DNA from: an uncultured bacterium
GTDB taxonomy: Bacteria; Chloroflexota; UBA5177; JANWHV01
Assembly: GCA_963827235.1 (NCBI GenBank)
Contig: CAWHAE010000014.1
Coordinates: 64,001 to 128,000, forward strand
DNA: 64,000 bases
Direction: 5' to 3'
Shown here: piece after piece, positions 1-28,328 of the stretch
Position numbering within the stretch: position 1 is the stretch's first letter
How the letters are laid out: every line of letters starts with the position of its first letter
The notes under the pieces: model-generated
Databases searched by the model: none
Seen by the model: only the letters and a program-made list of their open reading frames with translations
What the model was told of the DNA's origin: nothing
Made by a program: the position numbers and the translations under genes

Positions 1-176
1 CTCCAGCTACACGAACTGCGGCCCTTGCCGCGAGGGTTCAGCCTGCAGCTCGATTCCCGTCCCAGATCACACAAACAGATGCGGGCCCGGCAACTCACGT
101 CGGCACCGGGCCAACTGAATTGGTGTTGACAATGGTAACAACTTCCTGGACCGCAGCCAATGGCGAAGAGCCGGCG

Positions 177-956
177 ATGCCTGATGCAGCTGAACGCGTG
201 CAGGCCATGGAAACGCTCCTGGGCATAGTGTTCAACGATCGACGACTTCTGCTTCAGTCGCTGCTGCACCGCTCGGCGATACTGGAGCGGCAGAGAGACC
301 ACGCTGTCCTGCCCAATATGGAGTCCAACGAGCGCCTGGAGTTTCTCGGCGACGCGGTGCTCAGCATGTTGGTAGCCGAGTACGCGTATACGAACTTTCG
401 CGGGTACGACGAGGGACGACTGACCGAGGTGCGGGCAGCCCTCGTCAGGCGTTCGACGCTGTCCATTCTTGCCGAGGAGCTCGGCATGGCAGATCTACTG
501 TACGTGGGTCGCTCGGAACGGCGACCCGGTACGAGGGGACGGATGACCGTCCTGGCCGAGGCTTTGGAAGCCGTTGTGGCGGCAGTGTTTCTCGACCAAG
601 GGCTGGAAACCGCTCGGCGGTTCGTTGTCACTCTGCTCGAGGGAAGGATACCCTACCTCTTGCAGCGCGCCGGTTCGCTCAACCCCAAATCGCGCTTGCA
701 GGAGCTGGCGCAGTCGACATTGCATCAGCTTCCCACGTATGCGTTGCTCGGCAGATCGGGCCCTGCACACGACAGCCGGTTTACGGTGGAGGCGAGCGTT
801 GGCGGCTACCACGCAACCGGGCACGGGACGTCCAAGCAAGAGGCGGAACAGCAGGCGGCGCAGATGCTGCTCGAGCAAATTGCAGCGCTGCTGCACGGCT
901 CCGAGGATCCTTGCAAGTCCGACGACCGTCAGCTGGAGCAGCCGGATGGCAGATAG
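177..956 (+). CDS. rnc: Ribonuclease III
   Basis: Signature NERLEFLGDAVL, catalytic-region LAEALEA, C-terminal dsRBD (NPKSRLQE...GTSKQEAEQQAA). ATG at 177 chosen over the upstream TTG. Confidence 0.96.
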   Translation: MPDAAERVQAMETLLGIVFNDRRLLLQSLLHRSAILERQRDHAVLPNMESNERLEFLGDAVLSMLVAEYAYTNFRGYDEGRLTEVRAALVRRSTLSILAEELGMADLLYVGRSERRPGTRGRMTVLAEALEAVVAAVFLDQGLETARRFVVTLLEGRIPYLLQRAGSLNPKSRLQELAQSTLHQLPTYALLGRSGPAHDSRFTVEASVGGYHATGHGTSKQEAEQQAAQMLLEQIAALLHGSEDPCKSDDRQLEQPDGR

Positions 957-2133
957 GCGACCACGGCGGGACGATGCATGGCAGAGCGATGGGCCGCGGC
1001 AGCTGGCTTTGTTCGACCTACCCGAGACCAGCAAACATGAGCGCGCGGGTACCGGACATCTAGCCACCGATCATGGCTCGCAGGCAGCGCCTGGGGCCGA
1101 AATCGCGTCTCTCCAGGCCATAGACGAGAAGCCCACGGACGAGCGACCCGCCAGGAGCGGCGATCTGGCTCTGGCGGAAGCCAAGGGTGCCACAATCGCC
1201 CTGCGGCCGCTCGTCACGACGCTGCGCGCGGCGATCGAGGAGTACAAGCAGTACCTGGCGGCAATGAACCGCTCCAAACACACTCGCGAGAGCTTTGCCC
1301 TCGATCTCAGACTGCTGCTGGAGCATCTGGGCAACGCACCACTGCAGAACATCGGCGAGCGTGAGTTGCGCTCGTTCATCAGTTGGGTGAGCGTGCAGCG
1401 CGGCAATAGCGCCACATCCGTGCGCAGGAAAGTGGCAACGCTCAAGAGCTTCTTCGCTTACTTGCACCGCGAGCGCGCCATTGCCATGGATCCCGCGGCA
1501 ACGCTGATCTACCCGGAGATCTACCCGGCGCTACCCGAGTTTCTCGAGGATCAGCAAGTCGAGGACCTGCTGGCTGCGGCCGAGGAGCACCAGTTCTGGA
1601 ACGCGCTCGTGATGCTGATGCTGGCCACCGGCCTGAAGCGCGATGAGGTAGTGGCCCTGGGCCGCTCGGACGTCGTGCTGGCGCCTACCGGTGGTGAGTC
1701 GTATCTGGTGGTTCGGGAGACCGAGCAAGCGAAGCGGCTGCGGTCGCGTCGCCTGGATCTCGATGGCGAATTGGTCGACGTGCTGGCAGGCTACCTTGCT
1801 GCGCAGCCGGTCCGCGAACGGTTCTTTGACGTTTCAGCCCGCGGCGTCAACTTCATCGTCGAGACCTGCGGGCGGCGGGCGCACATCGCCGCCAAGGCCA
1901 ACAAGCTCACGCCCCAGATCCTGCGCTCCACCTTCGCCGTGCGAGCCATGCGCGCGATGATAACGGCTGAGGATGCACAGCGTATGGCTGGCGTATCTGA
2001 GATCACGGTGGCCGGTGTGGCGGAGCAGCACGATCTTCAGCTACTGAGGCTGCTCGGATTACACGAAGAACCGGAGTCGGCCAAGAAGTACCGCAAGCTC
2101 GTGCGAGGCTGGTCGGCGCACACCAGGCAGTAG
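946..2133 (+). CDS. Atypical tyrosine recombinase / Xer-like protein with substituted catalytic residues
   Basis: Core-binding domain (SATSVRRKVATLKSFFAYL), LPEFLEDQQVEDLL, box I LATGLKRDE, box II TPQILRSTFA...LLGLH...KKY. ATG overlaps the end of rnc. Confidence 0.85.
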   Translation: MADRRPRRDDAWQSDGPRQLALFDLPETSKHERAGTGHLATDHGSQAAPGAEIASLQAIDEKPTDERPARSGDLALAEAKGATIALRPLVTTLRAAIEEYKQYLAAMNRSKHTRESFALDLRLLLEHLGNAPLQNIGERELRSFISWVSVQRGNSATSVRRKVATLKSFFAYLHRERAIAMDPAATLIYPEIYPALPEFLEDQQVEDLLAAAEEHQFWNALVMLMLATGLKRDEVVALGRSDVVLAPTGGESYLVVRETEQAKRLRSRRLDLDGELVDVLAGYLAAQPVRERFFDVSARGVNFIVETCGRRAHIAAKANKLTPQILRSTFAVRAMRAMITAEDAQRMAGVSEITVAGVAEQHDLQLLRLLGLHEEPESAKKYRKLVRGWSAHTRQ

Positions 2134-2177: not shown

Positions 2178-3361
2178 TTAACCGAGTTCGATGATCGCGT
2201 CGAGTATCGCCTCGGCCACCTGCCGCTTGCTAGCCATGGGAACCTCTCGCGGCTCGAGGCCCGGCCGGCATAGCCAAACGTGATTGGTGTCATGATCAAA
2301 GCCGGCTCCGGGCTCGCAGACATCGTTGGCTACAAGTAGGTCGGCACCCTTTTGATCCATTTTTGCACCGGCCCGGTGTAATAAGTTCTCAGTCTCTGCC
2401 GCGAACGCCACCACGCGGAGCCCGTTTGGCCTGCTGATTGAGCCCAGCACGTCGACAGTGGGGACGAGCGACAGCGTAAGCTCATGGGGAGCTCGCCTAA
2501 TTTTGCTGGGGGAGGGTTCTGCAGATTTGTAATCGGCCACCGCCGCGGCCATGATCAGGACGGAGTTCACTCTGATATATTTTTGCACCCCAGCAAAAAG
2601 ATCTTCGGCCGTTCTGACGCGAACTACAACGACGCCGGGAGGCGGCGTCAGCGCAACCGGTCCGCTGATAAGCGTGACGTCTGCTCCGCGCTGCACTGCG
2701 GCCGCCGCGATCGCGTAGCCCATCTTGCCGGAGCTGCGATTGGACAGGAAGCGTACCGGATCGATCGCTTCTTGCGTCGGGCCGGCCGTGACCACGAAGT
2801 GCCGCCCCGCCAGATCCTGCCGGCTCCGCGCGAGAGCGAGAATAATGGACACGATTTCCGATGTCTCCGCCAGGCGCCCTTCGCCGGTCGTTCCTTCCGC
2901 GAGATAACCGCTTCCGGCCCGACGACGTGCGCGCCTCTCTCGCGGAGCAGTGAAACGTTCTGCCGCGTGGCGGCGTTGGTCCACATGGACGTGTTCATCG
3001 CCGGCGCCAGCAATAGAGGTGCGGACGAAGCCAGCAACGTAGCCGTCAGCGCGTCGTCCGCAATGCCCAGCGCGCACTTGGCGATCACGTTTGCCGTGGC
3101 GGGCACGACGGCCACGACGGCGGCACCGTGCGCCAGGCGAATATGAGAGATGTCCATGTCCGACTGCTCTTCCCAGAGGCTGGTTAGCACGCGATGGTGC
3201 GTGATGCTCTCGAATGAGAGCGGCGCCACGAAGCGCGTGGCGTTCTCGGTCATGATCGTGCGCACCGACAGACCGCTCTGTACCAACTTGCTGGCGACGT
3301 CCAGCGCCTTGTAGACCGCGATGCTGCCCGTGACTCCAAGGACGACCGTGCTATCGTCCAT
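2178..3361 (-). CDS. coaBC: Bifunctional phosphopantothenoylcysteine decarboxylase/ligase CoaBC (one frameshift near 2913)
   Basis: N-terminal frame GVTGSIAVYK...APAMNTSMW...HVVGP continues in another frame as SGYLAEG..GEGRL, VTAGPTQEAIDPVRFLSNRSSGKMG, AAAVADY. Confidence 0.93.
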
Positions 3362-16198: not shown

Positions 16199-16314
16199 GC
16201 CACGGCACCCCACTGAGAGTCCGATTCCCCTTCTGAACTCCCGTGAAGCCTTGACGCGGGGTACACTTGGCACAAGACGTAGCCGACCTCCACAGCGATC
16301 GGGAGCGAGATCAC

Positions 16315-17322
16315 ATGGCCGCAACAACACCGGATCGTCGCGCCGACCGGAAGCCTTCGACCCGGTGTCAGGTTTCAGCCGCCTCGTCAGGCTCGCCTGC
16401 GACGCTACCGAGCGCTCTGGGCCGGGCGATCGAGGAGTTCTTGCTCGACGAGCTGGCCCGGCGAGGTGAAAAGGCGCAAAGCCTGCGAGCGCGGACCTCC
16501 GACACGCATACACTTCTCGAGTGGGCGATCGGCCAGGGCGTTGCCGAGCCCGAACGGCTGACTCGCAACGTGCTGCGGAGCTGGATTGCCACCCTGCACG
16601 CGCAGGGCTATGCGCGCAGCTCCATGGCCCGCATGCTCTCGACGGCCCGCTCCTTTCTTCGCTTCTGCGAGATCAGGGGTGCGACGATCGATCGCAACGC
16701 GCTCTCGCTGAGCGCGGGCAGGCAGCAGCGGTCGCTGCCGGCGGTGTTGACGGAGCCTCAGGCGGCGCGCTTGCTGGATAGCCCGGCTGGTCGGTCTGCC
16801 GGCAACCGAGATCCTCTGCAGCTCCGCGACCAAGCAGCACTCGAGCTCCTCTATGGCGCTGGGCTGCGAGCAGCCGAGCTCTGCTCGATTCGCCTCGACA
16901 GCTTGTCCCTGGAGCGGCGCGAGCTGATCGTGATGGGCAAAGGTGCCAAGGAGCGGCGAGTGCTCTTTGGCCAGCCTGCGGCGCGGGCCGTGGAGGCCTA
17001 TCTTTCACGCTCCAGACCGATGTTGGTAGCCGGCGCGCGCGGGCACCAGGCGCTGATAGTCAACTGGCGAGGCGGACCGCTGACTGCGCGCGGACTCGCT
17101 CTGATCGTGGAGCGGCGCGCCGTCGCGGCAGGACTGACCGGCGGATTGCATCCGCACACGCTCCGCCACTCCTTTGCCACCCATCTGCTCAACGGTGGGG
17201 CGGATCTCAGGACGGTCCAGCTTCTGCTGGGACACGAAAGCCTGGCCACCACGCAGAAGTACCTGCACGTGGCGGATCCGACGCTGCGGCAGCTCTATCA
17301 CCGCTGCCACCCGCGCGCATAA
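16315..17322 (+). CDS. xerC: Tyrosine recombinase XerC/CodV-like with an intact active site
   Basis: GAGLRAAEL, MGKG, HPHTLRHSFATH, LLGH, TQKY; xerC-hslV-hslU synteny. Confidence 0.88.
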   Translation: MAATTPDRRADRKPSTRCQVSAASSGSPATLPSALGRAIEEFLLDELARRGEKAQSLRARTSDTHTLLEWAIGQGVAEPERLTRNVLRSWIATLHAQGYARSSMARMLSTARSFLRFCEIRGATIDRNALSLSAGRQQRSLPAVLTEPQAARLLDSPAGRSAGNRDPLQLRDQAALELLYGAGLRAAELCSIRLDSLSLERRELIVMGKGAKERRVLFGQPAARAVEAYLSRSRPMLVAGARGHQALIVNWRGGPLTARGLALIVERRAVAAGLTGGLHPHTLRHSFATHLLNGGADLRTVQLLLGHESLATTQKYLHVADPTLRQLYHRCHPRA

Positions 17323-28300: not shown

Positions 28301-28328
28301 TCTTCACATAACCTACATTATCAGAAGT
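28301..28328 (-). other. dif-like Xer recombination site
   Basis: Minus strand ACTTCTGATAA-TGTAGG-TTATGTGAAGA has 11-6-11 geometry with 8/11 identity in each arm to B. subtilis dif; intergenic. Confidence 0.75.

Follow-up and report, generated by a model that had tools for sequence, protein, structure and literature searches.

A lysine-type family of Xer-like proteins in Chloroflexota with an altered recombinase pocket and a conserved clamp-binding-type motif

XerC and XerD of bacteria and XerA of archaea are dimer resolvases that share the two-domain tyrosine recombinase fold. Xer proteins have also been described in other roles. XerD of Bacillus subtilis reportedly unloads structural maintenance of chromosomes (SMC) proteins at terminus sites, a job for which catalysis is said not to be needed. 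Streptococcal and lactococcal XerD-like proteins (family model NF002685) lack the full catalytic set and are not known to take part in dif recombination. To our knowledge no clamp motif has been described for B. subtilis XerD, and we know of none for the streptococcal and lactococcal proteins. SroF, an integrase-fold repressor of SPbeta-like phages (PDB 9rd5 and 9rgl), is reported to bind DNA without recombination (bioRxiv 10.1101/2025.11.27.690993). The protein considered here resembles these systems to different degrees. It is encoded at positions 946 to 2133 of the window, which is the whole 64,000-nucleotide stretch of contig CAWHAE010000014.1 from an uncultured Chloroflexota bacterium, and it is referred to as Lys-type because a lysine occupies the position of the first catalytic arginine. 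The reading that is preferred, with moderate confidence, is that the Lys-type protein is a clamp-recruited DNA-binding factor, probably site-specific, that would act on newly replicated DNA with little or no strand cleavage. The gene and the parts of its product are as follows.

Positions 946 to 2133, forward strand: gene of the Lys-type Xer-like protein (P0001), an intact open reading frame (ORF) of 395 amino acids.
Positions 1000 to 1014, forward strand: QLALF, residues 19–23, a pentapeptide of the beta-clamp-binding type, recognized by conservation and consensus match.
Positions 1015 to 1215, forward strand: disordered, poorly conserved linker, residues ~24–90, with a predicted local distance difference test score (pLDDT) below 50 for residues 25–77 and with length and sequence that vary among relatives.
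Positions 1234 to 1473, forward strand: N-terminal core-binding (SAM-like) domain, residues 97–176 (Pfam PF02899; helices at residues 93–175 with block-mean pLDDT of 92–98; Z of 13.7–15.8 to integrase N-terminal domains).
Positions 1540 to 2118, forward strand: C-terminal catalytic-type domain, residues 199–391, with K231, E234, the hairpin K263 and its RLRSRR, Q324, R327, L372 and Y382.
Positions 1978 to 2043, forward strand: clade-specific insert of 22 residues, 345–366, between the QxxR helix and the LLGL turn, defined by an alignment gap.

Tyrosine recombinases use the catalytic set Arg-I, Lys-beta, His-II, Arg-II, His/Trp-III and Tyr, which is incomplete in the Lys-type protein. Alignment with the organism's own XerD, its XerC-like protein and family members without the insert places K231 (codon at nucleotides 1636–1638), within TGLKRDE at residues 228–234, in the Arg-I position and shows that E234 is retained. 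Alignment with canonical Xer proteins and insert-less relatives assigns K263 to the beta-hairpin Lys, Q324 of QILR (residues 324–327) to His-II, R327 to Arg-II, L372 of LLGLH (residues 369–373) to His-III, where LGL stands in place of LGH, and Y382 of the KKY (codon at 2089–2091) to the nucleophile. The mapping of the C-terminal part was ambiguous against canonical Xer proteins alone and was cleared by adding distant insert-less family members. K231, Q324 and L372 are thus replacements, while K263, R327 and Y382 are kept. H373 lies outside the His-III position and is variable, with H, K, Q, F, R, S, T or A in relatives. The initial annotation had pointed to TGLKRDE with Lys in place of the box I Arg, to QILR and to the terminal Tyr in KKY, and all of these were found. 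It had also described LLGH as having become LLGLH; the string is present, but no Leu was added, as Leu replaces His-III and the His that follows is the variable residue. Similarly, the insertion that it had put at about 25 residues exists, but comprises 22 residues by alignment.

The insert corresponds to a 22-column gap in canonical Xer proteins and in the family members L033–L041. It is the least conserved sequence of the domain and is predicted as an extension of helix 323–347 together with part of helix 352–370, with block-mean pLDDT of 96–97 over residues 341–370. The beta-hairpin is 4–5 residues longer than in Xer proteins and is rich in Arg and Lys (AKRLRSRR). The likeness to XerC, XerD and XerA lies in the fold, in the best sequence-model matches, in a chromosomal location amid housekeeping genes, and in the retention of Arg-II, Glu, the hairpin Lys and Tyr. 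The differences are the Lys, Gln and Leu at Arg-I, His-II and His-III, the longer Arg-rich hairpin, the 22-residue insert and an N-terminal arm of ~90 residues that bears the clamp-binding-type motif.

Sequence models identify the protein as a tyrosine recombinase relative without placing it in a Xer class. Pfam Phage_int_SAM_1 (PF02899) matches with an E-value of 4.9e-13, and Phage_integrase (PF00589) matches with 31.2 bits, barely above the cut-off of 27.1. The XerA, XerC and XerD models give 80–90 bits, far below their cut-offs of 220–335; for the XerC equivalog TIGR02224 the score is 81.1 bits against 335.15 and for the XerD equivalog TIGR02225 it is 79.7 bits against 329.6. A phmmer comparison to XerD (1a0p) gave an E-value of 6.3e-11. 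The structure predicted by AlphaFold2 with the family alignment has a mean pLDDT of 82 and a predicted template modelling score of 0.66, with pLDDT of at least 90 at 264 of 395 residues and below 50 at residues 1–18, 20–22 and 25–77. Foldseek matched this model to XerA with an E-value of 9e-12, and structure alignments gave Z scores of 19.9 for XerA (5hxy), 18.9 for XerH, 18.2 for Tn1549 Int, 17.4 for lambda Int, 16.6 for the HP1 Int catalytic domain (root-mean-square deviation of 2.7 over 154 residues), 14.8–15.0 for the integrase-fold phage repressor SroF and 13.4–13.7 for topoisomerase IB, the last covering the catalytic domain only. The structure prediction that had been proposed as a check thus returned a confident tyrosine recombinase fold, and the two-domain architecture of a SAM-like and a catalytic-type domain is confirmed with confidence at the level of the model. 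The type IB topoisomerase pentad Arg-Lys-Arg-His-Tyr is absent: Lys takes the place of the first Arg and Leu that of the His. An incidental match was to PDB 9i5v chain 14, a Porphyromonas gingivalis 'RaiA' of ~400 amino acids, of which residues 52–256 align to the query. That chain retains a canonical GLRRSE and HVLRH, and the paper that reports it modelled 34 residues and never uses the word 'recombinase'. The chain may be an unremarked Xer–RaiA fusion or a sequence mix-up.

The replacements in the pocket are a family trait. A word-indexed protein search returned 64 relatives at E <= 2.4e-42 with 44–80% identity, followed by a gap to an E-value of 1e-9, where canonical XerC-like proteins start. 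K231, R232, D233, E234, K263, Q324, R327 and Y382 are invariant in all 31 relatives of one alignment (A1), which answers the question of whether the K and Q substitutions are conserved in homologues. Nine related loci were found in species genomes, all of them metagenome-assembled genomes of Chloroflexota. Of 301 sampled Chloroflexota genomes, 73 are matched by a family profile at E <= 1e-20, as are 57 of the 245 high-quality ones. Because the first look was stricter, this is a floor, and the unpublished genome G226 is part of the tally; the canonical Xer genes of the window genome miss this threshold. Against 1.84 billion cluster representatives the profile matched 64 proteins at E <= 1e-30 and 2,891 at E <= 1e-10. 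Databases name the family members XerC, XerD or (site-specific) integrase automatically, and a protein atlas held only automatically named Chloroflexota integrase clusters.

Column statistics were taken from 153 aligned stretches, made up of the best 150 representatives of 50%-identity clusters and two relatives. The Arg-I column contains K in 102, R in 35, T in 4, A in 1, D in 1 and a gap in 10. When Lys is at Arg-I, His-II is never His (0 of 84; Q 53, E 22, S 4, N 2, D 2, K 1), whereas Arg at Arg-I is paired with His in 20 of 29 cases. Leu fills the His-III column in 78 of 82 K-type C-terminal tails. In the same 82 tails the Tyr column has Y in 58, L in 12, I in 8 and other residues in 4, so that the nucleophile is replaced in 24 representatives. 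At the hairpin Lys position K, R, Q, S, A, E and N all occur, even among members that keep Tyr, the local alignment being uncertain there. A FastTree phylogeny was built from 97 rows, using representatives of 270–460 amino acids, with 13 of 110 tails left out for length; its support values are local and its root is arbitrary. The 22 canonical R/H/Y rows are split from all K rows by a branch with support of 99, and most of the Tyr-less rows form one clade of 22 with support of 98. The window protein falls among 27 rows that form a clade (support 94) in which all but two keep Tyr.

The ratio of nonsynonymous to synonymous substitution (dN/dS) was determined by the Nei–Gojobori method and was 0.13 for L013/L014 (dS 0.72), 0.04 for L055/L056 (dS 0.58), 0.056 for L047/L049 (dS 0.45) and 0.11 for L020/L021 (dS 0.06). 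Four more pairs gave 0.10–0.18 at a saturated dS of 1.7–3.1, and the two pairs that include the window are among them with 0.14 and 0.18. The Lys-type family is under purifying selection, as dN/dS is 0.04–0.18. The sequences suggest that it is a large and old sister group of Xer, so far found mainly in Chloroflexota, chromosomal and vertically inherited. Two observations on gene structure were made in passing. P0080, of 1051 amino acids, was called as a fusion of a Ser/Thr kinase, a beta-helix and the family domain and may be a gene-calling fusion, and at L043:7121-9367 on the reverse strand a Ser/Thr kinase gene lies directly upstream of a family gene.

The N-terminal arm contains the most informative clue to function, a conserved QLxLF motif of the clamp-binding type that the initial annotation had overlooked. 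Q19, L20, L22 and F23 are each at least 90% conserved in A1, and the rest of the first ~90 residues is unalignable and of variable length. QLALF sits in the disordered arm, with adjacent residues at pLDDT below 50. In the literature the clamp-binding consensus reads Q-phi-x-L-F, specifically QL[S/D]LF, with the hexapeptide form Q-phi-x-L-x-L, for example QLSLPL in Hda (bioRxiv 10.64898/2026.05.27.728225). Family members carry QLSLF, QLALF, QLTLF, QLVLF or QMTLF, a sister clade has hexapeptides of the QLxLP[LF] type (QLALPF and QLVLPL), and distant members show QPSLF, QANLF and QPDLF. The strict motif is present within the first 60 residues of 49 of 57 close relatives that start with Met, and 38 of 73 K-type cluster representatives have it in their N-terminal extension. 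It is found in 3 of 14 R-type representatives, all three of which are non-canonical and Tyr-less. Members without Tyr retain the motif, for example P0137, P0156, P0164 and P0200. The Lys-type protein thus shows the sequence feature of beta-clamp-binding proteins, an exposed and flexible Q-phi-x-L-F that is conserved among orthologues.

The genomic background of the motif is low. Of 10,564 six-frame ORFs of at least 200 amino acids in the window genome, 5 contain Q[LM]x[LM]F within their first 60 residues and 5 within their last 15. Four of the latter five encode MutS, a UDG-superfamily glycosylase, an ExoIII-type nuclease and a helix-hairpin-helix protein, so that the motif marks DNA-repair proteins in this organism. 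The gene of the organism's DnaN sliding clamp is at L042:1489-2625 on the reverse strand. As a side observation, the glycosylase, the nuclease and the helix-hairpin-helix protein (L071, L072 and L073; G000 C8:344618-345301, C9:1065324-1066592 and C12:394573-395856) end in QLSLF, QLTLF or QLPLF, like MutS, and on this basis are likely to be further clamp clients. No paper containing both 'tyrosine recombinase' and 'clamp-binding motif' was found, and no such link appeared among the best 15 of 60 and the best 12 of 80 partial matches. Likewise, no such family was described among the best 12–15 of 60–373 partial literature matches.

The comparison with the other described systems can be drawn from these features. 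Bacillus subtilis XerD, reported as an SMC unloader by Karaboja et al. (2021), is similar in that a Xer protein serves as a sequence-specific DNA-bound factor, and the Lys-type gene is convergent to scpA in two genomes of one family (f47); it differs in being an ordinary catalytic XerD in a second job. The streptococcal and lactococcal proteins are likewise chromosomal and Xer-derived, however, they are shorter (model length 245) and not close in sequence, and the NF002685 model gives only 13.7 bits (E-value 0.042) against a cut-off of 178, which leaves the Lys-type protein outside that family. SroF resembles the Lys-type protein in fold, at the Z of 14.8–15.0 given above, but it is an antirepressor-controlled phage repressor with 11–12% identity, no clamp motif and no chromosomal housekeeping context. 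From the side of the motif, Hda, Pol IV, MutS, Tn3 TnpA and a group II intron protein each carry a terminal Q-phi-x-L-F or Q-phi-x-L-x-L on a flexible segment, and none of them has a tyrosine recombinase fold. Mobile-DNA enzymes are known to use the sliding clamp (PMC11417375, PMC6698660).

The neighbouring genes and sites that bear on the interpretation are listed next.

Positions 120 to 956, forward strand: rnc (RNase III) with a provisional start codon, given as context only, TIGR02191 210 bits against a cut-off of 166, with Pfam Ribonucleas_3_3 and dsrm domains.
Positions 16267 to 17322, forward strand: XerC-like tyrosine recombinase with canonical R...HxxR...LLGH...Y, TIGR02224 272.3 bits, below the cut-off of 335.15; given as context only.
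Positions 28301 to 28328, forward strand: dif-like site TCTTCACATAA-CCTACA-TTATCAGAAGT, recognized by dif architecture and conservation; context, as no link to the Lys-type gene was found.

The Lys-type ORF has zero internal stops, its start position is the same as in aligned homologues, and a GGAG lies 7 nucleotides 5' of its ATG. This ATG, at 946, sits within the rnc frame, whose TAG is at 954–956, giving an overlap of 11 nucleotides. The intact frame and the overlap agree with the initial annotation, which had also proposed a coupling to RNase III. The linkage holds in the genus, where rnc lies upstream and coaBC downstream in 3 of 3 genomes that carry the Lys-type gene (G154, G172 and G181), but the arrangement is seen in none of 36 other Lys-type loci with flanks of 1.5–6 kb, and rnc is near the gene in none of 7 more distant loci. 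Conservation of the linkage among homologues at large is therefore not borne out. The coupling is a genus-level operon arrangement that reveals little about function. The neighbours in the window are rnc, coaBC and rpmE. The coaBC gene (2178–3361, reverse strand) is divided over two frames, with the flavoprotein part in ORF 2648..3361 and the DFP part in ORF 2178..3077; the frame changes near '...HVVGPEAV / GSGYLAEG...', the gene is a single open frame in the same-genus genome G154, and the split is either a frameshift or an assembly error.

Neighbourhoods were surveyed at 20 loci, each from a different genome. Outside the genus the Lys-type gene lies mainly among housekeeping genes that depend on the lineage, namely a GH113-like gene directly downstream, Tex, ComEC with a glycosyltransferase, coaX, tilS with a LytR-type gene, scpA and cmk. 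No neighbour is common to all 20 loci. No typical mobile-element gene set was found beside the Lys-type gene in these loci, except that an IS605 OrfB lies two genes off in one locus and an integrase fragment is near the gene in another. Neither repeats nor att-like sites flank the Lys-type gene, which is not the picture of a mobile-element integrase. Separately, in two loci of family f47 (L059 and L060, from G176 and G242) the Lys-type gene is convergent to scpA and also lies beside cmk, a DUF512 radical-SAM gene and a pseudouridine synthase gene, a neighbourhood that recalls that of the streptococcal XerD-like genes. The members at these two loci have no detectable clamp motif, and one has Phe in place of Tyr.

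The canonical Xer system of the window genome is present in addition to the Lys-type gene. A separate canonical XerD, whose presence was one of the points to be checked, scores 366.7 bits against the cut-off of 329.6 and adjoins mutS on a different contig, and in each of 5 further Lys-type-bearing genomes that were checked, canonical-type Xer genes are present elsewhere. The canonical XerC and the dif-like site that had been noted within 28 kb were both located, the former as the XerC-like gene at 16267–17322, which has the canonical residues and falls below the TIGR02224 cut-off, and the latter at 28301–28328. The dif-like 28-mer has a single exact match in the genome. All 4 same-genus genomes keep it as an island of conservation that differs chiefly in the central hexamer and whose flanks cannot be aligned at all, and it lies at C14:92.3 kb, in the 10-kb bin of the maximum of cumulative GC skew of contig C14. 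These sequence features make 28301–28328 a credible chromosomal dif, and the window probably spans the replication terminus because the dif-like site is at the skew maximum. The Lys-type gene is 26 kb from the dif-like site and 15 kb from the XerC-like gene, and in the same-genus genome G154 a single contig carries both the Lys-type gene and dif, 24 kb from each other. A terminus location as a general trait of the Lys-type gene was ruled out by its distances to dnaA, which are 0.19 genome lengths in G076, 0.08–0.14 in G111 and 0.10–0.15 in G272. The dnaA search also returned two separate full-length DnaA matches, each above the curated cut-off, in 4 of 5 Chloroflexota genomes checked (G111, G165, G138 and G272).

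In the mechanism proposed for a clamp-recruited factor, the N-terminal QLALF would dock in the hydrophobic cleft of the DnaN sliding clamp, and the flexible linker of ~70 residues would let the recombinase-fold body, with its two domains, close around duplex DNA in the vicinity. The old active-site pocket retains Arg-II, Glu, the hairpin Lys and, in the window's clade, Tyr, and has Lys, Gln and Leu at the Arg-I, His-II and His-III positions; it could still hold a backbone phosphate, but would be poorly built for stabilisation of the transition state. Candidate processes would be modulation of Xer/dif and SMC handling, as described for XerD. Tyr is gone from a large subclade that nevertheless keeps the fold, the Lys and the clamp motif, so covalent catalysis cannot be required for a function that all members share. 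The substitutions themselves have been studied in Cre by Gibb et al. (2010, PMC2943603), who report that R173K shows no cleavage or recombination in vitro, that His289 tolerates many substitutions, that Lys201 and Tyr324 are essential and that Gln is found at His-II in ~1% of natural tyrosine recombinases. By analogy, the Lys/Gln/Leu pocket should be a poor catalyst, yet is not provably dead.

Several points weigh against a clamp-recruited factor with little or no cleavage. In the same study Cre R173K recombines in vivo, and Cre H289Q retains activity while the covalent intermediate builds up (Gibb et al. 2010, PMC2943603), so that Lys and Gln do not prove inactivity. The window's subclade keeps Tyr in 25 of 27 tree rows and in 31 of 31 relatives in A1, and Arg-II and the hairpin Lys are also kept, which hints that the pocket still acts on phosphate. 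No target DNA site was found, and the dif half-sites were not enriched over reversed controls: with at most one mismatch the whole genome holds 18 and 17 matches, compared with 17 and 28 for the controls. Of the 17 matches to the right-arm half-site, 4 are on contig C14 with dif itself included, which are too few to interpret. Additionally, 35 of 73 K-type representatives with an N-terminal extension are without the strict motif, although some of their starts may be miscalled, and the cellular process that the protein would serve is a guess.

The main rival reading is that the protein is a working enzyme with non-canonical chemistry, in which the Tyr-keeping clade nicks or recombines DNA via Y382 using Lys231, Arg327 and Lys263, either as a slow or tightly regulated replication-coupled recombinase or as a clamp-recruited swivel of the topoisomerase IB type. 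This is possible, if on the whole unlikely. It is consistent with the invariance of Y382, R327, K263 and E234 in 31 of 31 relatives, with Tyr in 25 of 27 rows of the window clade and 58 of 82 K-type representatives, with the likeness of the catalytic domain to topoisomerase IB (Z of 13.4–13.7), and, from Gibb et al. (PMC2943603), with R173K of Cre being active in vivo, H289Q being active and Gln occurring at His-II in ~1% of natural enzymes. However, three of the six pocket residues are altered together, the large Tyr-less sister subclade keeps the remaining architecture and the clamp motif, the hairpin Lys column is variable even where Tyr is kept (in a part of the alignment that is uncertain), and the surroundings of the gene show neither repeats or att-like sites nor typical mobile-element genes. 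A bolder variant, which would amount to a new class of replication-coupled DNA transaction, is a recombinase derivative that the clamp loads onto freshly replicated DNA and that uses the retained Tyr in its Lys/Gln/Leu pocket to make slow or long-lived covalent nicks. Such nicks could provide a fork-trailing swivel, an aid to decatenation or a protein–DNA roadblock that hands over to Xer/SMC at the terminus, and the Tyr-less sister clade would be a purely structural version; this variant is considered improbable.

A narrower variant, a role at dif itself as a dedicated non-catalytic partner of XerC or XerD, is also quite doubtful. Bound to one arm of dif or to a dif-like site, such a partner would adjust when, or in which order, strands are exchanged, and the clamp would link dimer resolution to the end of replication. 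The proximity of a conserved dif (26 kb, and 24 kb in G154) and of the XerC-like gene (15 kb) fits this role, as does the stimulation of XerD catalysis by XerC R148K, cited by Gibb et al. 2010 (PMC2943603). Elsewhere, though, the gene is far from the terminus (0.08–0.19 genome lengths from dnaA in G076, G111 and G272), both canonical partners are already in the genome, and nothing in the sequences connects the protein with either arm of dif. A role connected with RNA or RNase III, suggested by the overlap of the rnc stop with the gene start and by the gene order repeated in all three same-genus genomes with the gene, is very improbable, as rnc adjoins the gene in 0 of 36 other loci (flanks of 1.5 to 6 kb) and is missing at the 7 more distant ones, other lineages have a GH113-like gene, ComEC, coaX, tilS or scpA as neighbours, and the protein fold holds no hint of RNA. 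There is next to no likelihood that the gene is a decaying integrase or that its substitutions are assembly errors. The Phage_integrase match barely above its cut-off (31.2 against 27.1 bits) could be taken in that sense, but the ORF is intact, the structure model is confident and no typical mobile-element gene set lies alongside, bar single IS605-type and integrase-fragment ORFs in two loci. Decay and error are refuted by the invariance of the substitutions in relatives together with the dN/dS of 0.04–0.18. The claim of the initial annotation that this is a maintained paralogue with an altered active site, and not a decayed integrase, is in line with K and Q being kept family-wide; close homologues are without the canonical residues and dN/dS indicates purifying selection, the two points on which the claim could have failed.

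Tyrosine recombinases are usually read from their catalytic residues, and the Lys-type family is automatically annotated as 'XerC/XerD' or 'site-specific integrase'. The group has fixed Lys, Gln or Glu, and Leu in the pocket, has lost the nucleophile in one big subclade and has gained what appears to be a clamp-docking peptide, and its profile matches about a quarter of the sampled Chloroflexota genomes. Counting Lys-type genes among the Xer recombinases, or taking them to mark mobile elements, would be misleading. Should the clamp link prove true, recruitment by the replisome clamp would be shown for the first time for a protein with the recombinase fold, and the Lys-type protein would point to an unrecognized chromosome-handling step in a phylum whose cell biology is poorly known.

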